Origin: Calditrichaceae bacterium
GTDB taxonomy: Bacteria > Calditrichota > Calditrichia > Calditrichales > JBFXGD01
Reading direction: 5' to 3'
DNA: 64,000 bases
NCBI GenBank assembly: GCA_050173015.1
Contig: JBFXLE010000015.1
Location: 1 to 64,000 of the forward strand
Shown here: piece after piece, positions 33,678-43,723 of the stretch
How the letters are laid out: every line of letters begins with the position of its first letter
Numbering within the stretch: the first letter of the stretch is position 1
The notes under the pieces: generated by a model
What the model was told of the DNA's origin: nothing
The model's database searches: none
The model's input: the letters and a program-made list of their open reading frames with translations, nothing else
Made by a program: the position numbers and the translations under genes

Positions 33678-34127
33678 TTAAATTCCGTGACAATTTGTTC
33701 CTGTATCCCCGCATGAGCTTGATGGTCTCGCAAGCGAATTCTCACCGCTATGGCATTTATTGCACGTGGTAACCGATTCATTTAGAACACCTTTAACAAA
33801 CTGGCCATGAAAAACAGGACCCGCGAGTGTCCAGCCGCTCGGATGAGGATAACTCGCTCTCGGGTAATCTTTATGACAATCCACACAGAATGTTCCCGCT
33901 TCCGCAGACAGGATATTTTCTCCGTGACATGATTTACAGGAAACCGCCCCTGCTTCAGCCACTTTATTCGAATGGAAAACTTCGGCCTTGATTACGGCAT
34001 TATCTCTAATCGTTACTTCGCTCCAGCCATCAGGGTGCGTAACACTGACAACCGGTGAAGTATCTTCCGAACAGGCCATAAGTCCGAGAACAAATAAAAA
34101 CATGACTAAGTATCCAAAAACTTTCAT
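33678..34127 (-). CDS. Small multiheme cytochrome c lipoprotein (3 CxxCH plus one CX6CH)
   Basis: Lipobox LMAC; CKSCH, CVDCH, CNKCH, CGDTGTNCH. Confidence 0.85.
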   Translation of the reverse strand: MKVFGYLVMFLFVLGLMACSEDTSPVVSVTHPDGWSEVTIRDNAVIKAEVFHSNKVAEAGAVSCKSCHGENILSAEAGTFCVDCHKDYPRASYPHPSGWTLAGPVFHGQFVKGVLNESVTTCNKCHSGENSLARPSSSCGDTGTNCHGI

Positions 34128-34171: not shown

Positions 34172-36949
34172 CTAAATTTTATACCCAAACAAGACCGAAT
34201 AAATGATTAATAGAATCAGGATAATTCCTATGGAAAGGAACGTAAATCCCAACACATTAATAAACCGTTCCCTGCGTTTCGATATGTACTCTTTTACGAC
34301 GATCTTCTTTAACGCGCCGCTCTTTTTAAGTTCAGCATAATCTTCGGGACGATCCTTCATATATTCCTCAACGGGCACAAGTCCCGTAAAAATAACCTTA
34401 TCCATCGGGAAGGCTTCGGGTCTAAGGTGTGTGTTAAAAAAATGAATGGTAAAAATAAACCCTACCGCCAGCAACGCCTCATCACTATGAATAATCGTGG
34501 CCACATTAATCAGCCAGCCCGGGAAAAATTTTGTAAAAAATTCGGGGAACCATAGCATCAAACCCGATAAGCCGATCACCGCCACCCCCCAAAAAACAGC
34601 AAAATAGTCAAATTTTTCCCAGTATGTCCATTTACCATAATCCGGTCTTTCTCCCTTCCCCAGAAACCATTTGACTGTTCGCCAAAAATCGACGGCGTCT
34701 TTTTTGTTGAACATCATGGAATCACGCCCGAATATAAAATCTTTCCAGGGGGTTTTACGGCTCATCTTTCTTTTAAATAACTGATAAAGATGACTTGTAA
34801 AATAACCCGCCGTCAATATTGCCGCGAATCGATGAATCCATCCTGCCGCCTCTACACCGCCGATCATTTTCGCCAGGTATCCGGCCCAGGGCATTCCCGA
34901 AAACTTTAGCATCATACCGGTCAGCGCTAACAGGATAAAACTGATAATTACAAATATATGCGTGAGTCTTTGTGAAAATTCAAAGCGCCGTATGTAATAT
35001 CTTGTCTGCGGCTCTTTTTGCTTTTTCTTTCTCTCTCTCAAATGGCGAAACGAACGGGGAAGCCACAGAAGCGTATGTATTCCAAAAAATCCGAAAACAC
35101 TCACAAGCAGGATTGTCATTGCCCAGTAGGTGTAATAAAGGATTGGATATTTTACCGGGTCATGATGCGTGGCATGGGTCAGATATCCGGTAAAGCGCTG
35201 ATTAGCGTCATCATGACATTTTTGACAGGTCGAAACAATATGATGCATCCCGACACTGGAATTCGGATCGTTAATACCAAAAATAAGATGAGAATTATGA
35301 CAGTCGGAACATTTAGCCGATTTAAGATAACCAAGCTGATAAGTTTTTCCATGCATGGTCTGCAAATAAGTTTCGGAAAGTTCTCTATGGCAGGTTCCGC
35401 ATTGATCCGTCACCTCGGTCATAAACTGATCTTTCTCCACCTCGGTGATCTTGTGTGAAGAATGACACTGTGTGCATGTCGGGAGCTTTTCCATTTCCCT
35501 CTCATCCACTGAAAAATGAATGCTCTTTGTGTAATCCTTATAGATCCCTCTATGACAGGTGGCGCAAGTCGCCGGAATATTTTTGGGGTGGACCGATGAA
35601 CGGGTATCCTCGTGATTAAGCTCCATATGCGCGGTATGACAATCCGTGCAAACCGCGCTCGGCAAAAGTCCCTTTTCGGTAAGGCCCCTGCCGTGAACGC
35701 TTTTTGAGTAATCGAATAACGCGTTCGTCTCAGATAAATGTCTGGTCTCTTCCAGACTACTGTCTGAACGATGGCATCCCCCGCACAATTTCGGGATCGC
35801 CGCCCTGTAAGTATTGGATGTTTCATCCAGTGATGATTTTGTATCATGATATCCATGGCAGGCAATACAGTATGGCACATGCCCGTTTCCCTGCTTATAA
35901 CCTTTCCCGTGCCCGCTGGCCGCGTATTCTTCGCCTATTTTAATATGGCAGCTTGAACAATCCACGGGACCGACTGTTTTACAGGGGCGTTCCAATTGCG
36001 GATTAACATCAGAATGGCATTTTACGCAGGTCACTTCATTGTGAACCGATTCAGAGATAGTAGTCTTAGAGACCTGCAGGCTGACAATTTCACCATCTTT
36101 GAGTTTATGGATATTTTGATTGTCATGGCATTTAAGACACGATCTGTCAGATACTTTTAAGGTTAATGATTCCTTGCGCGCTTTATGAGGTAGATGGCAA
36201 TCGGTGCAGGCCGGGATTGATCCCGGATCGCTGCTCCATTTTTCACCTTCAATTACTTTTACATGAACATCCTCGATACGGCTGTGACATTTCATGCAGG
36301 TGGACGCTATATTCCTTGGCGAAATTGAGGATTTGGTATTGGTATGAGGCAGAATAAAGTGACTTCTATGACAATCGGCGCACGCGGCGCTGACGATCAA
36401 TCCTTTTTTAAATAAACCTTCTCCGTGAATACTCAAGCTGTAGTTTTCGAGAATATTATGTTCTGTGATATTATAAACACGGGCCACCGGGGCGCCTTCC
36501 CGGTGACATTTACCGCAAAGAAAAGGAATGTTCATTTTATAAGACGGAGATTTTGGATTCTCCGGTGAGAGGATATCATGTTTTCCATGACATTCACTGC
36601 AATTCGGAGCATAGATTTCTTTTTGTTTTAGCGCCAGGCCGTGAATCCCCGAATCGAATTCAAGCTGAATATCATCATGACAATCACCACAATGGACAGG
36701 ATTTAGCCGTTCCGGATGCGGAAACTCTTCCACATCCGCGTCGGGATGACAACTTGCACACTCCACTCCTTTATGCACAGAATTTTTAAGATCAGAAGGA
36801 TTGATATAAAGGGAAACCATCCTGTTTCCGCGCTGAACAGTTAGCTCGGGATCAGAATGACATTCAAGGCAGGTTTCGTCATCGACAGCATATAGATTAC
36901 TGCCGGCTAACAGCATTAATAATGTCAGCCAGATTTTCATCATATTCAT
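34172..36949 (-). CDS. CbcL-like fusion: 19-heme cytochrome c domain plus membrane cytochrome b domain
   Basis: Signal peptide; 19 CxxCH counted; C-terminal TM domain with [32 protein letters not shown]; exact start uncertain (36940-36970). Confidence 0.9.
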
Positions 36950-37080
36950 CCATAGTACTCTGGAACACAATTGCTACATTTATAAAAATCCGGTTGCCGG
37001 TCCAAAAAATTTCCCTTCTCCGAAGACAGAAAATTCAAATGCCATTTTGGAATTGGAGCGGCAACCGGTTAATAAATACC

Positions 37081-39003
37081 CTAAATTTTGGGTTGATGTG
37101 AATTGTCTTTTTGCTCCATCAGCTTTTCATACTCAAGCGGATGATGATGTTTCATTTCATCCAAAGTAATTTTCCCATCCATCCAGGTGGTACTCATCGG
37201 ATATTTTTCAGGATGAAGAATAACAAAAAACCAGTGCCAGATTACGATCGCCAGAGTAGCCAGCCATGCTTCGTAATAATGAATCACCTCCGATGTTTCA
37301 AATAACCAGGTTGGGAGAAAACCGATAAAAAATTCAGGGAACCACAACACCAGACCGCTTGCCCCCATCACAATCACACCCCATATCAAAGCAAGATATT
37401 CCGCTTTCTCGGCATAATCGAATCGACCAAAGCGAGGTCGCTCCTTGCTCAATCCCAGATAAAAAGAAATATTTTTCCATAATCCGATCACATCATCCAG
37501 TGTCGGCATTAATTCTATTAATTCTCTTCGTCCTTTCTGAGTAAACAGAAGATATCCCAGTTGAACCACTGAGATTGTACCCATAACAACCGCCGCGACT
37601 CTGTGGGTTACGGATCGTATGGCCTCTGTCATACCGAGTGAAACAAGTAGTTTTACCCAGCCCGCTTCCGGAAATTTCAGCGCGAAGCCTGTAATCGCCA
37701 GCAAGGTGAAACTAAGAAACATCAACATGTGCTGATAAACTTCGAACGACTGAAATCTCGGCACTCGCTCAGCATACTTATCAGCTTTTCTTTTTTCACG
37801 GATATGATGCACAAGGATGATCAGATTGTGGATAAACATTCCGCCGATCACAACAACAATCATCCATATATATAAGTTTTTAAAAAAGAAGGCGATAGGA
37901 TTTCTGACCTGCTGATTTATCGGATGCACATCAATTTTAACAAAACTTTCCGAAATATTCGCGTGACATTTGCCGCATGTTTCCTGCAGATGCGCGGGAT
38001 GAACACTCGCCAGACTATCCGATTTTGATTTGATCGCGTGTGTTTCATGGCAGCTTGTACAGGTTGCCGCTTCAGGAGATCCCTTTAGCGCGGCCAATCC
38101 GTGATAACTTTTCATATAGGAATCAAGTCGCTCAGCATCCAATCCAAACCTCGACATGAGTGTTGGAGAAGAATGACAGCTGGCGCATAGTTTCGTGGAC
38201 TGAAGAAGACCGCTGGTCGTCGCGTTTTTATCTGATGCCATCTTTATATCGTGTTCACCGTGACAGTCTGTACAAACCGGTGATTCTCCATGCCCACGCT
38301 GCAATGAATTCCAATGAATACTGTCATGATATTCATCTTTTTCACTTTCATGACAAGTACCGCATGTCTCCGGTATGTTCAGGGCGTTCAAATGTGATTC
38401 AGGATTGATGGCCGGTAAGATCGCATGATAATCATGACAATCCGTACAGGTTGCCACCTCTGCCTCGGGATCTTCGGTAATCATTTTCCCGTGAACACTT
38501 TCAAGATAACTTGCAACCGGATTCACGTTTCTTCTGCCGAACAGACGAATAACTTCCGGCTTGGCGTGACAAGACGCGCATGTATAGGCCAGGTTTCCAT
38601 GATGGACTTTCGACTCCGTCTCATCAGAACTCAGAATATCATGAACCCCATGACAATCCGTACATTTTGCGGCTGCCTCCGAACCCTTTGCCAACGCCTG
38701 TCCGTGAATGCTCCGGTTGTATTCTTCCTGGGCATCCTCATGACATGTGGCACAATTCACAGGGGTAAGAATCTCTTCATGAGGCAATTCTTCGATACCC
38801 TGATGACAATCGATACACTCAAATCCACCGTGAATGGAATTCTCGAAATTTTCCGCATGTACAAAAACAGAAACTTCCGTAGTGTCATTAATCATCCTTG
38901 TCAGATCCGGATCGCTGTGGCATTCCATACAATCTTCGTTGGACTGTCCAAAAGCAAACACCGCGGCTGCGAATAGCAATAATAATACTCGTTTCAAAAG
39001 CAT
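37081..39003 (-). CDS. CbcL-like fusion: 11-heme cytochrome c domain plus membrane cytochrome b domain
   Basis: GAGGA RBS before MLLKRV; 11 CxxCH; EVYQH, THR, EKAEYLALIWG, IHYYEA, IWH. Confidence 0.9.
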   Translation of the reverse strand: MLLKRVLLLLFAAAVFAFGQSNEDCMECHSDPDLTRMINDTTEVSVFVHAENFENSIHGGFECIDCHQGIEELPHEEILTPVNCATCHEDAQEEYNRSIHGQALAKGSEAAAKCTDCHGVHDILSSDETESKVHHGNLAYTCASCHAKPEVIRLFGRRNVNPVASYLESVHGKMITEDPEAEVATCTDCHDYHAILPAINPESHLNALNIPETCGTCHESEKDEYHDSIHWNSLQRGHGESPVCTDCHGEHDIKMASDKNATTSGLLQSTKLCASCHSSPTLMSRFGLDAERLDSYMKSYHGLAALKGSPEAATCTSCHETHAIKSKSDSLASVHPAHLQETCGKCHANISESFVKIDVHPINQQVRNPIAFFFKNLYIWMIVVVIGGMFIHNLIILVHHIREKRKADKYAERVPRFQSFEVYQHMLMFLSFTLLAITGFALKFPEAGWVKLLVSLGMTEAIRSVTHRVAAVVMGTISVVQLGYLLFTQKGRRELIELMPTLDDVIGLWKNISFYLGLSKERPRFGRFDYAEKAEYLALIWGVIVMGASGLVLWFPEFFIGFLPTWLFETSEVIHYYEAWLATLAIVIWHWFFVILHPEKYPMSTTWMDGKITLDEMKHHHPLEYEKLMEQKDNSHQPKI

Positions 39004-39013
39004 TAATTCCTCA

Positions 39014-39901
39014 CTACTTTCCATGACAGGTGACACAAACTATATCCGTATAAGCATCATTGTGACAACTCATACAATTATCAAAATCAGACCGCCCGGC
39101 TCTCGCGTGCCTGCCACCGTTACCCGGTACCGTGTTTGACCAGTTTGCAAAAGCATGATTTTGAGGCATGACTCTCTCGGCCTGATGGCAGTCGATACAG
39201 AATGAGAATTCTTCGTGACAGGTTAAGCAATTCTCTTTATTTCCTTTAGCCTGCATTCCGTGAGTCTGCCTGAAATTAAGCGGATGTACCTCGCGATTCA
39301 AATTATCACCTTCATGACATGTAGTGCAATAATTATTCTGATGACAGTGATTGCAGGAAGTCGTCTGTGACATCATACCATGATCTTTTTTCCAGTTAAG
39401 CCGGTGAGTCTCCGGTACAAATTTCATTTCCGATTCATGACAGGTTAGACATGCCTGCTTATTCTCACTGTAGTCCTGATTTTCATGGCAATTCGCGCAG
39501 ACCTGACTATCAGGTATATGCAGGGTACCGACCTTTTCTTTTTTATCAATCCCCTGGTGGCAGGTCTGACAGTTTACTTTACCTGAGACATGTGTCTTGT
39601 GTGGAAATTTGCTCCCATAATCCACAACACGCTGAGCAATACCCGGTTCATCCGGATTCGTGTGGCACATTGCGCATTCTACTTCATCCGGACTATGGCA
39701 ACTGTTGCAGGTCTCCATTGCCGGAAGCAAATTATCCGCCTGCGAAAGACTGCTATTCGCGTTGGCATGACAATCTGTGCAGGCCGCGCCGACATCTTCC
39801 GCATGTAATTGATGCGAGAAAATAATCTGATCCGGAGCCTGCGCATTGGCAAAACCGGTCAGACAGAACAATACTATGGTTATAAATGATAAGCCTTTCA
39901 T
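39014..39901 (-). CDS. Periplasmic 12-heme cytochrome c (c3/c7-like repeats)
   Basis: Signal peptide ending ANA; 12 CxxCH; FSH..H and FPH..H motifs. Confidence 0.92.
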   Translation of the reverse strand: MKGLSFITIVLFCLTGFANAQAPDQIIFSHQLHAEDVGAACTDCHANANSSLSQADNLLPAMETCNSCHSPDEVECAMCHTNPDEPGIAQRVVDYGSKFPHKTHVSGKVNCQTCHQGIDKKEKVGTLHIPDSQVCANCHENQDYSENKQACLTCHESEMKFVPETHRLNWKKDHGMMSQTTSCNHCHQNNYCTTCHEGDNLNREVHPLNFRQTHGMQAKGNKENCLTCHEEFSFCIDCHQAERVMPQNHAFANWSNTVPGNGGRHARAGRSDFDNCMSCHNDAYTDIVCVTCHGK

Positions 39902-39914
39902 ACGACAGCACCTT

Positions 39915-41111
39915 TTACCAAATGAAATGAATATGGTTTAATATACGTTGATCCGAGTCTTTCTCCCGGTTTGTCAGCCACTGATATTCCAGATCAGCGC
40001 TCCAGTTCTTTGAGAAACTATATGACGCTCTGACCGCGTTTGCCAGCTGATCTTCGTAATCATATACTTCTTCATAACGGTATTGTGAATAGTCCACACT
40101 GAGAGAAGCCAGAAGCTTTGGTGTGACCTGGTATCCATAATCAACCGTTACGCCTGTTTGATCACCCAGATCACCGGTTTCAAAAATAAATCCCAGCGTT
40201 CCATTGGAATTATTCAGCGTCAGCAGTACCCGCTGCGCGTCTCCGTCTTCCAATTGAAGAAACTGATATTCCGCGCCAAGATAGTATTCGTCTGTCAGCG
40301 CATAGGAACCGTTAAACGCGCTTAAAGTATAGGATTCCACGTCAAAGATACGGAAATAGGAATCGCCGTAAATTTGCGGATGCTGCTGCTTAAAGTATAG
40401 ATTCGCGCTAAATTTATCAGACATCCGGTATCTTCCCGACACATAGAAACGATGCAAACGGTCATTTACCAGATCATAATGAGTCTGCAACATAATTTTC
40501 AGGTTGTTAACTGATGAGTTGTATAAATTCAGCCCGGCGATTTGCCACTGCGTTTCCCCGGAATGCGTTTTTTGAAGATATACGCCCTGAATGTCCGTGT
40601 CATAAAAATTTTTATATTTCAGAGCCGTCCCGTAAACAGCCGCGTCGTCGGATTCGTAGATCTCAAAAGCTTTGTTAAAGTGAGATTCGACACCGCCATA
40701 TAACTGCCATTCCACGTTCCTGATCGGACGGAAAATCATATTCAGACCATCAATACTCCCCAGAACCAATCCGGGATGCAGAAATTGCCTTCCTAATTCG
40801 AAGTCCATCAGATTATTAAACAATCCCTTGCCGGAGATGGACATACGGTAAGCGTTAAATCTTCTTTCATCCGCAAGATCTTCATCAAGATCGGTGAGAA
40901 TCCGGCCTGACATATTAAATCTGAGATCCCCCCACTCCTTCAGCCCGGCCTGAAAACGGACAGTCTGATACAAACGGGTATGTGATGTGGTATCTTCGTA
41001 TGAATATACTGTATTCGAAATACGTCCGTTTGTCTGAATACCCTGGGCAAAAAGATTCAATGCAAGAAAACCCAGTACCATAATGCTAGTTAAAACAATT
41101 TTCGTTTTCAT
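39915..41111 (-). CDS. Putative outer-membrane beta-barrel (porin of a porin-cytochrome complex)
   Basis: Signal peptide; alternating amphipathic strands rich in Y/F; C-terminal aromatic (HIHFIW); flanked by multiheme cytochromes. Confidence 0.8.
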   Translation of the reverse strand: MKTKIVLTSIMVLGFLALNLFAQGIQTNGRISNTVYSYEDTTSHTRLYQTVRFQAGLKEWGDLRFNMSGRILTDLDEDLADERRFNAYRMSISGKGLFNNLMDFELGRQFLHPGLVLGSIDGLNMIFRPIRNVEWQLYGGVESHFNKAFEIYESDDAAVYGTALKYKNFYDTDIQGVYLQKTHSGETQWQIAGLNLYNSSVNNLKIMLQTHYDLVNDRLHRFYVSGRYRMSDKFSANLYFKQQHPQIYGDSYFRIFDVESYTLSAFNGSYALTDEYYLGAEYQFLQLEDGDAQRVLLTLNNSNGTLGFIFETGDLGDQTGVTVDYGYQVTPKLLASLSVDYSQYRYEEVYDYEDQLANAVRASYSFSKNWSADLEYQWLTNREKDSDQRILNHIHFIW

Positions 41112-41133
41112 AACTCTACTCTTATGATTAGGT

Positions 41134-41166
41134 AAAAAGAGGCGGATTCAAAATAAAATCCGCCTC
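41134..41166 (-). terminator. Terminator-like hairpin inside the cytochrome operon
   Basis: GAGGCGGATT...AATCCGCCTC stem plus A5. Confidence 0.65.
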
Positions 41167-41182
41167 CGGATTGGCTTAACAC

Positions 41183-42574
41183 TTATCTTTTTTGAACGAC
41201 AACATTTTGATTTGCCGCTTTTTCCTGGTCTAAAAATTGCTGGAGACTTGGATCGCTCACACCAATTGTCAGAGAATCTTCACGCAGGAAATATTTATCG
41301 CTGTTTCCAAGGAAAGTTCCAACGTTATGACAGGTTCCTCTACCGCAGGATACGCCGCCGGTTGTGTCTGTCATAACCGTCCAACGCCTTATATTATGGG
41401 GCGTGGCGTATTTCCAGGTCGGTTCCGCGGTAAAATTAGCAAGCGAAATACTGCCACCCCAATTGTCATAGGTGTCCGGAACAATCGGAATATGTCTGAC
41501 CGGAGCGAAATCGTATGGGCGGGTGGCGCTTTTAAGATAATTTTTACCAATTTTAAAGGTGAGATAAGATGACCCGGTGATGCCGGCACCGTCAACATGA
41601 CAGCCATTGCAATTCTTGTAGGCTTGAGAATGGCAGGTCTGGCATGATAATTTTGATCCATTTCCAGACCAATGCTGATTGTGATAAGCATTTGAAGTAG
41701 CTACGTCAGCATGACAGTCTTCGCACTTGGCGGTGATCGGTGAATCTTCAATATAACGATAATCATACTGATTACCGTCGCCGTGCATTTCGTGGCCGTC
41801 GTGACATAACATACAATCATATCCTTTGGCGGAATGGACATCCATGTAGATTCCTTTATCACTGTGAGCCCCGGTATATTCTTCCCCAACACGTGAGCCG
41901 TGACACGCGGTACAATTGCTTGTCTGATTTGGCGTTCTTCTGAATGCATGTCCTGATACCAGACCACCATTGACCGAGCGCGGTTTACTGATGTGGCATT
42001 CGCCGCAGGTGGCGTGACATTTCGCGCAGTCTTTCGTAAAACCCGCGACCATCGCGTCATCAGTTCTGAGATCCATTCCACCCGATCGCACTTCAAATCT
42101 CTGGTGATAGCCTTCCTGAGTGAGATGCAAACTTGTTTCAAAATTTGACACTTGCTGCGAATGGCAGGGACCACAATAGGTCTCAGCATCTGTTAAAGAC
42201 GGATATGGCACTAAATTATTGTGCGCGTCCGTTTTGGTAAATTCTTCAGGATTACCTTTATGGCAAGCGGTACACCCTAGATTCCCGTGTGTGGAAGTAA
42301 GAAATTCGGTTTTTACAAAAACACGTTCCCATGCCTCAACCTGAGGCACTGTGCCGCCTCAGCCCTCGCCGGATTCACCGCCGGTATCGGGAAGAGGATC
42401 GGCAACCTTGATAAGTAAATCTTTGTCTGTATGACAGCTGACACAACTGGTTTCATCCACAGAAGCGAATTTCTTCGTTTCTACCGGATATTTTTCTTCA
42501 CATGCTGTCATCCATGTGACCGCGAAAACGAAGAGGACAAGAAGAACAATTTTTCTAAACATGACCTTATCCAT
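41183..42574 (-). CDS. Selenocysteine-containing multiheme cytochrome c lipoprotein (463 aa; Sec72 at UGA 42359-42361; 10 CxxCH plus one CX4CH)
   Basis: ORFs 42359..42574 and 41183..42349 share a frame and are joined by TGA GGC GGC ACA (GEG-U-GGTVPQ). The upstream part has the signal/lipobox MTAC and CVSCH; the downstream part has 9 CxxCH but no signal peptide. A SECIS-like hairpin follows the UGA. Confidence 0.85.
42331..42349 (-). promoter_or_regulatory. Bacterial SECIS-like stem-loop
   Basis: mRNA G-UGCCUCA-GGU-UGAGGCA-U: 7 Watson-Crick pairs plus G-U; G-first loop begins 18 nt after the UGA. Confidence 0.8.
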
Positions 42575-42611
42575 TTTTTGTGTTTATATAAATAGTTAGT
42601 TTAATCATAGC

Positions 42612-42647
42612 AAAAAACAAACCAGGCTCATCACCTGAGCCCGGTTT
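42612..42647 (-). terminator. Terminator-like hairpin after the rhodanese gene
   Basis: AAACC.GGCTCA...TGAGCC.GGTTT with a downstream U-rich tract. Confidence 0.6.
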
Positions 42648-42685
42648 ATACAACATTTATAATTAAGAAAGATCAAACACCCATC

Positions 42686-43723
42686 TTATGGATTAACTCC
42701 GGTTGTTACCGGGTAGTCATGACCGGTTGCTTCGCTGAATGGCGCTACTCCGCCTCTTGCCGCTGTGCTCTTTGTCCATGACATGATGCCATGTTTTAAA
42801 TTGACAGCATTATATCCAAGAAGATTCAAGGCCGTAGTAGCGATACCACCGGTATGCCCTGTATAACAATATACAACAAGGAGGCGAGTCGGATCAATCT
42901 TTTTTAAATTATCTTCACTGGCGATTTCTTTCCAGGGAATATTAATCGCGCCCGGAATATGACCGATAGCATAATGGTCAGCGGAACGTACGCTTATGAT
43001 CTGTGGATCATTACTGGTATCACCATCATTGATCACTCCATGAAGAACATCCGCATTGTAAGTTGCAGACCCTAGTGATGCATAAAGATCAGCTGCCGCC
43101 AGCATAATTTCATCAGCATTTGTTGATGAACTGAATTCCGGATTAGCCAGTTCATATGTTGAGGATGCATTAATTGTTGTTTCAATTTCATAATCAAAAC
43201 TGGTCGCTTCACTGAACGGCGCTACTCCGCCTCTTGCCGCTTCATCTTTGGTCCAGTCCATAATACCAAACTTTAGATTGTAAGCGTCATAACCAAGCGC
43301 GCGCAAGATCGTTGTCGCGACACCACCGGTATGGCCAGTATAACAATAAACGGCGATTTTTCCATTATTCGGGATCGCGGCGATTCTCGCGTCAAGAGCT
43401 GCAAGTTTTTCAGTTTTCGCGATATCCCTCCAGTTGATATTGATCGCGCCCGGTATATGCCCGGCTTCATAATGAGCAGCGCTTCTGACACTGACTACCA
43501 CATAATTGTTTGAATCATCACCATCATTAATATTGTCATACAAAACCTGAGCTGTCATGATAGGAGTAACAGCTACATTTACGCTAGCGTCCACAATCGG
43601 CTGGAGTACATCAAAATCACTTGTAACCGTGCTGCTGCCGCCGTCATCGCTGTCATCAGAACAACCGATAAACATGGCAAACATTAGAGCAAAAATGAAG
43701 TACATTAATTTTTTTACCAACAT
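42686..43723 (-). CDS. Tandem rhodanese-domain (sulfurtransferase) lipoprotein
   Basis: Lipobox FIGC; two domains, each with GHIPGAINI and active-site loop YCYTGHTG. Confidence 0.92.
   Translation of the reverse strand: MLVKKLMYFIFALMFAMFIGCSDDSDDGGSSTVTSDFDVLQPIVDASVNVAVTPIMTAQVLYDNINDGDDSNNYVVVSVRSAAHYEAGHIPGAININWRDIAKTEKLAALDARIAAIPNNGKIAVYCYTGHTGGVATTILRALGYDAYNLKFGIMDWTKDEAARGGVAPFSEATSFDYEIETTINASSTYELANPEFSSSTNADEIMLAAADLYASLGSATYNADVLHGVINDGDTSNDPQIISVRSADHYAIGHIPGAINIPWKEIASEDNLKKIDPTRLLVVYCYTGHTGGIATTALNLLGYNAVNLKHGIMSWTKSTAARGGVAPFSEATGHDYPVTTGVNP

Follow-up and report, generated by a model that had tools for sequence, protein, structure and literature searches.

Does the TGA codon that closes a short open reading frame (ORF) in the genome of a Calditrichaceae bacterium terminate translation, or does it encode selenocysteine (Sec) within a longer gene for a multiheme cytochrome? 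The stretch analyzed here, referred to below as the window, comprises positions 1 to 64,000 of contig JBFXLE010000015.1 (contig 15 of assembly GCA_050173015.1), and it belongs to a genome of 4.34 Mb that is 97.5% complete. On the minus strand, a 71-residue ORF (42574..42359) ends with the TGA at 42361..42359. The same frame then continues with GGC GGC ACA GTG CCT into a 388-residue ORF (42349..41183). We conclude, from comparisons of sequences, that 42574..41183 is very probably a single gene in which UGA codon 72 is read as Sec, and that this gene lies in a family distinct from MccSep/ExtKL, the Sec-containing multiheme cytochrome of Geobacter sulfurreducens. The features of the gene are as follows.

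42574..41183, minus strand: predicted selenoprotein gene of 463 codons with one in-frame TGA; the stop codon TAA is at 41185..41183.
42500..42574, minus strand: signal peptide with lipobox (residues 1-25, ..W-M-T-A-C25); the protein has no other export signal.
42431..42445, minus strand: heme motif 1, C44-V-S-C47-H48, on the 5' side of the TGA; invariant in 36 of 36 aligned sequences.
42359..42361, minus strand: UGA codon 72 in G-E-G-U-G-G, read here as Sec; in homologs the column is conserved or is Cys.
42331..42349, minus strand: hairpin resembling a selenocysteine insertion sequence (SECIS), with an 8-base-pair (bp) stem and the loop GGU; it covaries in homologs.
41597..42274, minus strand: heme motifs 2-10, nine CxxCH from C101 to H326; their centre is distantly homologous to octaheme tetrathionate reductase (OTR).
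41327..41347, minus strand: heme motif 11, C410-G-R-G-T-C415-H416 (Cx4CH); C410, C415 and H416 are invariant.

When the TGA is read as U, a single product of 463 residues with U72 is obtained, and the remaining codons are free of any stop or frameshift. An earlier note on this DNA had joined the 71- and 388-residue ORFs in frame through the TGA. It had assigned the lipobox MTAC, the sole export signal and one CxxCH to the first part, and nine CxxCH plus CGRGTCH to the second. The joined translation agrees with all of these assignments, although the title of that note spoke of ten hemes and the actual count of heme-binding motifs is 11. Every one of the 11 motifs is invariant across an alignment of 36 full-length sequences, in most of which motif 11 has the form Cx3CH. 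The G-U-G-G motif and nine histidine residues outside the motifs (H96, 118, 150, 209, 247, 264, 298, 301, and 393) are invariant or nearly so in the same alignment. Nine such residues for 11 hemes would leave two hemes without a conserved distal His. The lipobox Cys25 is present in all aligned homologs whose N-terminus is included. The codon at 42359-42361 is unchanged in contigs of four runs from four studies; therefore, the TGA is not an assembly error.

The machinery for Sec insertion is encoded in the same genome, as the earlier note had proposed to check. A tRNA-Sec was found with 69.2 bits against a cut-off of 47 and was called SeC(tca) by ARAGORN, and selB (362 bits), selA (516 bits) and selD (405 and 371 bits) all scored above their curated cut-offs. 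The tRNA-Sec gene clusters with those of tRNA-Tyr and tRNA-Val (L001 1139..1591, G000:C2). The two selD copies are located at G000:C2:247845-248780 and G000:C27:38679-39602. One of them has its own in-frame TGA and thus would itself encode a SelD selenoprotein, and the other lies within a 738-residue open frame and thus appears to be fused to a further domain.

The TGA is retained widely among homologs. A search of 41 related genomes gave 32 full-length matches, 29 of them with exactly one in-frame TGA and three with none. Across 86 genomes of the phylum, the gene is held by 39, 36 of which have the TGA form. These 86 genomes gave 42 matching stretches, 38 with a TGA: 37 contain one TGA, one contains a TGA and a TAA, three are full-length and free of stops, and the last is a C-terminal fragment that ends short of the Sec site. 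Twenty loci were extracted and translated. The TGA falls at one column in 17 of them, within G-[EG]-G-U-G-G, and the other three (L036, L038, and L039) have TGC or TGT, that is, Cys, at this position (..SGGCGGDAPH..). Among 25 further loci from named metagenome-assembled genomes, labelled Calditrichaceae, KSB1, Thermodesulfobacteriota, Cloacimonetes, Gemmatimonadetes, Cytophagia, and Lentimicrobiaceae, the TGA stands in the same motif in 23 and is replaced by Cys in one (L065). The remaining locus (L066) was left out of this scoring because its assembly is frameshifted several times within the gene. A full-length Cys form that keeps the Sec-type flanks (GEGCGG) also occurs among the database proteins (P0006). 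Homologs have TGA or Cys with conserved flanks at this site, the pattern that the earlier note had proposed to look for, and a TAA, a TAG or a change of frame was encountered there in none of them, apart from the frameshifted L066 and one broken copy (G046:C10:142178-143403). That copy, with a TGA and a TAA, is in two pieces and is probably decayed or mis-assembled.

Some genomes hold more than one copy. Two TGA-containing paralogs are present in each of G034 and G077. The C-terminus of a 413-residue database protein (P0027) runs into ..CLTCHLDAELLEAVADSIPSNGGGSGEG, which is the N-terminal part of a second copy and indicates tandem copies in some genomes; the second-copy sequence stops just short of the Sec site.

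The distribution of selA appears to follow the codon. No selA match was found in any of the three Cys-form genomes (98, 98, and 85% complete), while selA scored above the cut-off in both of the TGA-form genomes tested. The Sec machinery, the conservation of TGA or Cys at one column, and a covarying hairpin after the UGA together strongly support the assignment of residue 72 as Sec, which the earlier note had made.

The hairpin consists of a 5' arm, GUGCCUCA (42349..42342), the loop GGU (42341..42339), and a 3' arm, UGAGGCAU (42338..42331). Counted from the UGA, the stem occupies positions +10..+17 and +21..+28, and the loop G is at +18, i.e., 18 nucleotides (nt) after the UGA. The 7-bp hairpin described previously is thus present, at the distance given for it, and is extended by a closing G-U pair. 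UGA-72 would be decoded by SelB and Sec-tRNA(Sec), recruited by this 8-bp hairpin starting 10 nt downstream. In an alignment of 17 Sec forms, 79.8% of the cells of the helix (columns 20-26/30-36) are paired, and three pairs show compensatory changes. A second alignment contained 30 of 40 Sec-form loci, after the removal of 10 rows that duplicated a kept row exactly or almost exactly. There, 80.8% of the cells in columns 19-26 with 30-37 are paired, five of the eight pairs show compensatory change (24 cells), and neither the loop G nor the third loop base varies. The unpaired cells come mostly from a small group whose register is shifted by one base. The covariation was equalled in 0 of 500 shuffles, a count that overstates significance because the aligned sequences are kin, and all slid registers scored lower (at most 52.9% paired). 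The folding energy of nt +7..+36 averages -10.2 kcal/mol (mean z -2.0) in 35 distinct Sec forms and -1.45 kcal/mol (z +0.87) in four Cys forms, in which the hairpin is missing.

Several results on the RNA weigh against a SECIS function. The minimum-energy structure of this region, folded alone, does not contain the hairpin stem; the segment with the UGA pairs with the 5' arm of the hairpin instead. Since a 76-nt segment, folded by itself, had z = -0.9 and the minimum-energy fold competes with the hairpin, single-sequence evidence proves nothing either way, and the significance of the predicted hairpin comes solely from the comparison of homologs. A scan of 40900-42900 against Rfam at E up to 10 matched no SECIS family and returned only chance-level PinT and L20-leader hits. 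RNAalifold, applied to the 17-sequence alignment, did not predict the hairpin and proposed a 4-bp helix around the UGA. The alternative helix, in which the UGA segment (C-UGA-GGCG) pairs with the 5' arm of the hairpin, lies at 42362..42355 with 42354..42334 (minus strand), or columns 6-13/20-27 of alignment A2. It is 82% paired in the 30 homologs; however, it lacks covariation, and two of its positions are broken in about half of them. The helix might form in alternation with the hairpin, or its pairing might simply follow from the fixed G-U-G-G codons.

The fold of the protein was approached by modeling and profile comparison. Pfam gave generic multiheme hits on the joined protein, including MtrC/MtrF domain II/IV (35.1 bits), and NCBIfam gave only ExtM, with 37 bits against a cut-off of 800. 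The AlphaFold2 model built from the family alignment has a pLDDT (predicted local distance difference test) of 76.1 and a pTM (predicted template modeling score) of 0.72. Foldseek found no match in the Protein Data Bank (PDB) at E ≤0.001, and its best hit was 1sp3 (E 0.27). VIA-align, run against about 48,000 chains, placed 1sp3_A (OTR) on top with Z 8.8 and a root-mean-square deviation of 4.2 over 265 residues, covering model residues 93-463; the next match had Z 3.7. Columns 214-316 of the family profile (A3) were aligned by hhalign with the OTR homolog of the same genome (probability 97.2%, E 3e-11, 99 columns). Searches of the PDB sequences with the protein and the family profile gave generic heme-motif hits only (NrfB/NrfA, E ~0.003).

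On the basis of the VIA-align and hhalign results, the core appears to be a distant relative of OTR with extra hemes. Residues 93-463, approximately, would form this distantly related core, preceded by an extension with one heme and the Gly-rich loop G-E-G-U-G-G. The fold match and the profile alignment support distant kinship of the window protein with the family of OTR of Shewanella oneidensis (PDB 1SP3; TIGR04315), but not membership: TIGR04315 (cut-off 375 bits) did not match the window gene in either the protein scan or the whole-genome search. The true OTR homolog of this genome is located elsewhere (C31:20688-21950), scores 584 bits and contains no stop. The window protein differs from OTR in having 11 rather than eight heme motifs and, in addition, an N-terminal heme, the Sec loop and a lipobox. 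OTR breaks an S-S bond in a sulfur compound (PMC13510729), and a Sec-containing member of the OTR family is listed in a passage of the 2026 selenoproteome review (PMC13188914).

The only solved precedent for a protein of this kind is MccSep/ExtKL of G. sulfurreducens (gsu2937-2936; NF040886; PDB 9WT8-9WTC; Mihara et al., Sci Adv 2026, PMC13510729), which was identified in 2026 as the polysulfide reductase long sought in Geobacter and which reduces polysulfide and selenite. It has five hemes and a signal peptide that is cleaved off, and it forms a soluble tetramer in the periplasm; its Sec, U325 in D-G-U-P, is carried by a mobile loop from the C-terminal immunoglobulin-like domain and lies beside a His/Cys-ligated heme (PMC13510729). 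MccSep and the window protein have in common that they are multiheme c-type cytochromes in which a UGA encodes a single Sec and is closely followed by a SECIS-like hairpin, that annotation splits their genes into two ORFs, and that Cys-type homologs exist. The Sec loop is mobile in MccSep and has low confidence in the model of the window protein. The ExtKL cluster of Geobacter includes the rhodanese lipoprotein ExtH and the porin ExtI (PMC5877670), and the window gene is also near a rhodanese lipoprotein and an outer-membrane barrel. In contrast, the window protein has 11 heme motifs against five hemes, a lipobox, and Sec72 in G-E-G-U-G-G near the N-terminus, where MccSep has U325 near the C-terminus.

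Membership of ExtKL/MccSep was considered and rejected, because no hidden Markov model or sequence match was found and the architecture is different. NF040886 (cut-off 250 bits) gave no match to the window protein at E up to 1. In the whole-genome search it did not match the window gene, and its best score in the genome was 30.4 bits, elsewhere. A 388-residue frame at C31:34179-34889 gave weak NF040886 hits of about 30 bits, 13 kb from the OTR homolog mentioned above. The MccSep chains 9WT8-9WTC, which are in the PDB sequence set searched, were matched by neither the window protein nor profile A3 at E up to 1, and hhalign against an MccSep-like protein aligned just one heme motif of 21 columns. 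No MccSep entry appeared in the Foldseek and VIA-align results; the Foldseek library is dated to 2026-04-08 and may predate 9WT8. The comparison with ExtKL that had been drawn earlier thus holds as an analogy between Sec-containing multiheme cytochromes, but not as family membership. A May 2026 review (PMC13188914) names, in its available passages, ExtKL, the GSU2204 family and one OTR-type protein as the cytochrome-type selenoprotein families; the models of none of these matched the window protein in the NCBIfam scan.

The surroundings of the gene bear on its function. The relevant features are the following.

42686..43723, minus strand: 345-residue lipoprotein with two rhodanese domains, each with the active-site loop CYTGHTGG; upstream of the selenoprotein gene; Pfam Rhodanese, 120.6 bits in two stretches.
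42617..42649, minus strand: terminator-like hairpin of 14 pairs with a T-run, between the rhodanese and selenoprotein genes.
41138..41167, minus strand: terminator-like hairpin of 12 pairs with a T-run, just past the selenoprotein stop.
39915..41111, minus strand: 398-residue outer-membrane beta-barrel of about 22 strands, downstream; AlphaFold2 pLDDT 78.9.
39014..39901, minus strand: 295-residue multiheme cytochrome (c7/c3-like) that carries a signal peptide; its gene accompanies the selenoprotein gene in 12 of 25 loci.
37081..39036, minus strand: 651-residue fusion of a multiheme cytochrome c and a membrane cytochrome b (Ni_hydr_CYTB type); its homologs stand near the gene in many related loci.

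Of 25 related loci, 22 have the rhodanese gene directly beside the selenoprotein gene, and a contig end interrupts the neighborhood in the three others. The barrel belongs to no Pfam or NCBIfam family, and its model resembles the MOMP, AlgE, and OccD porins in Foldseek (best E 2.5e-9). It is present in 13 of the 25 loci and missing from 12. Loci labelled Thermodesulfobacteriota retain the rhodanese gene, and no barrel was found in their flanks. The 651-residue fusion is likely the quinol-side entry of electrons. A paralogous fusion of multiheme cytochrome c and cytochrome b, with 932 residues (34172..36970, minus strand), lies in tandem with it downstream of the cluster, and a small cytochrome of 149 residues is located beside the two (33678..34127). 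The selenoprotein gene may be transcribed or attenuated apart from the rhodanese and barrel genes, given the two terminator-like hairpins that flank it.

The adjacency of the rhodanese gene suggests sulfur or selenium chemistry, and a chalcogen-reducing module may be proposed from the gene surroundings and the linkage in the 25 loci. We see about an even chance that the window protein is the terminal reductase of a chalcogen substrate, such as polysulfide or sulfane sulfur, tetrathionate or thiosulfate, or selenite. As judged from its motifs, the protein would be exported via the N-terminal lipoprotein signal, lipidated at Cys25, and loaded with up to 11 c-type hemes. Electrons would pass from the quinol pool through the cytochrome-b/multiheme fusion to the 295-residue periplasmic cytochrome, and the 22-strand barrel could provide a passage across the outer membrane. 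The rhodanese lipoprotein would bind sulfane sulfur or selenium and hand the sulfur over. Sec72, on its mobile loop, may then attack the S-S or S-Se bond beside a heme that has no conserved distal His and therefore an open or unusual sixth ligand. In Wolinella succinogenes, the rhodanese-type polysulfide-sulfur transferase Sud feeds the terminal reductase Psr. The likeness is that a periplasmic-side rhodanese is paired with a terminal sulfur reductase, a pairing deduced here from gene adjacency alone; unlike the window protein, Psr is a molybdopterin enzyme and is neither a cytochrome nor a selenoprotein.

A more far-reaching proposal is possible, and we put it forward tentatively. The window protein may represent a second class of Sec-dependent multiheme chalcogen reductases, which would be unrelated to MccSep in sequence, anchored as a lipoprotein, and served by a dedicated double-rhodanese partner. 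Sec72 would ligate a c-heme iron or shuttle sulfane sulfur or selenium between the rhodanese and a catalytic heme; the earlier note had suggested that it may act as a redox arm or heme ligand. The protein might then be a so far unrecognized terminal enzyme for the reduction of sulfur, polysulfide or selenite in Calditrichota, KSB1, Marinimicrobia-type, and many Desulfobacterota lineages. If Sec72 indeed ligates heme iron, this would be an unprecedented His/Sec heme.

Other observations count against a catalytic role in chalcogen reduction. The choice of substrate, drawn from the gene neighborhood and from analogy, is a guess. The neighboring proteins fall below the NCBIfam cut-offs for ExtH and ExtM; the rhodanese protein scores 23.5 bits against ExtH, whose cut-off is 200. 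One homolog (P0098) is devoid of the whole Sec/Cys loop. In the model, the Sec loop (residues 65-74) has a pLDDT below 50, and this heme-free model does not place the loop relative to the hemes. Finally, the protein has about 4.4 kDa per heme by our estimate, and PMC7096707 assigns values in this range to electron carriers rather than enzymes.

The last value fits a different role for the same Sec-containing protein. It might be an electron conduit, that is, a porin-cytochrome lipoprotein that passes electrons to Fe or Mn minerals or to a partner cell, with Sec72 as a low-potential axial heme ligand or redox switch. The lipobox, the adjacent 22-strand barrel, the periplasmic multiheme cytochrome and the quinol-side cytochrome-b fusions are all compatible with such a conduit, as is the Pfam hit to MtrC/MtrF domain II/IV. 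VIA-align also returned weak fold matches to MtrA, OcwA, and the undecaheme S-layer cytochrome (Z 3.0-3.3). As in MtrCAB and the Pcc/Ext conduits of Geobacter, an outer-membrane barrel, a periplasmic multiheme cytochrome, and a lipoprotein multiheme cytochrome are encoded together here. Unlike those of classical conduits, however, the barrel of the window matches no family and is missing from nearly half of the related loci. The most constant neighbor is the rhodanese gene, which is kept even in the Thermodesulfobacteriota-labelled loci with no barrel in their flanks. The top fold match and the sole profile-level homology both point to the catalytic cytochrome OTR. Moreover, Sec in bacterial proteins is usually catalytic, and we know of no classical porin-cytochrome conduit that carries Sec at this position. 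We regard the conduit role as the main alternative, but as rather unlikely.

Both roles presuppose that Sec is inserted. It is very improbable that the TGA is a true stop which separates two genes, one for a 71-residue monoheme lipoprotein and the other for a 388-residue protein initiated at GTG 42349. The sequence GAGG does stand 7 nt upstream of this GTG, where the earlier note had seen no evident ribosome-binding site; it lies inside the conserved U-G codons (TGA GGC). Gene callers also annotate homologs in this way. Among the best 120 database hits, 118 span only 72-84% of the joined protein, and the NCBI annotation of a 94%-identical relative (P0002) begins at that GTG (MPQVEAW). The 388-residue part, however, has 10 heme motifs and no signal peptide, and the attachment of c-type heme needs export. 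The protein is conserved right across the TGA, which is replaced by Cys in some genomes. The candidate start is not kept in homologs, being GTC, GTA or GTT in four of the 30 aligned Sec forms, and the helix accounts for the G of the GTG. In addition, selA co-occurs with the TGA form and the hairpin covaries.

It is hardly credible that the TGA marks a decayed gene, that it was introduced by faulty sequencing, or that it is decoded as an amino acid different from Sec (e.g., Trp or Cys, by near-cognate decoding): the G046 copy with its additional TAA and the frameshifted L066 assembly could be cited in its favor, but the identical TGA occurs in contigs of four independent studies and in 36 of the 39 gene-holding genomes of the phylum, which excludes a pseudogene or a sequencing error, the 463 codons contain no other stop or frameshift, the dedicated hairpin is missing from Cys forms, and the Sec machinery is complete.

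With UGA-72 read as Sec, the public records of the family become understandable as truncations. In public databases it is found almost only as leaderless fragments of about 350-410 residues, named 'hypothetical' or 'cytochrome c family', in line with the earlier expectation that standard gene callers would split the gene. Because of this annotation as leaderless fragments, metabolic reconstructions miss the selenoprotein together with its export signal and first heme. Several truncated homologs are labelled 'thiosulfate/3-mercaptopyruvate sulfurtransferase' by the Joint Genome Institute, although their Pfam hits are to cytochromes only; the label was perhaps carried over from the neighboring rhodanese gene or from fused forms.

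The kind of protein, a bacterial Sec-containing multiheme cytochrome, is already known. The family itself is unmatched by the curated models of NCBI. Our literature searches brought up the MccSep paper, the ExtI paper of 2018 and the review of 2026 but no account of the family, although the supplements of surveys could list it. The main text of the Caldithrix abyssi genome paper does not mention selenocysteine, selenoprotein or rhodanese. The gene would found, or belong to, a selenoprotein family apart from MccSep/ExtKL that is widespread and routinely mis-annotated.

Few Sec-containing cytochromes are on record, and this family would be a widespread addition to them. Because it is constantly paired with a rhodanese lipoprotein, it is a candidate for a sulfur/selenium respiratory module in uncultured sediment and marine phyla. 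Its natural variants, with Sec, with Cys or without the loop, allow the role of selenium to be tested directly.

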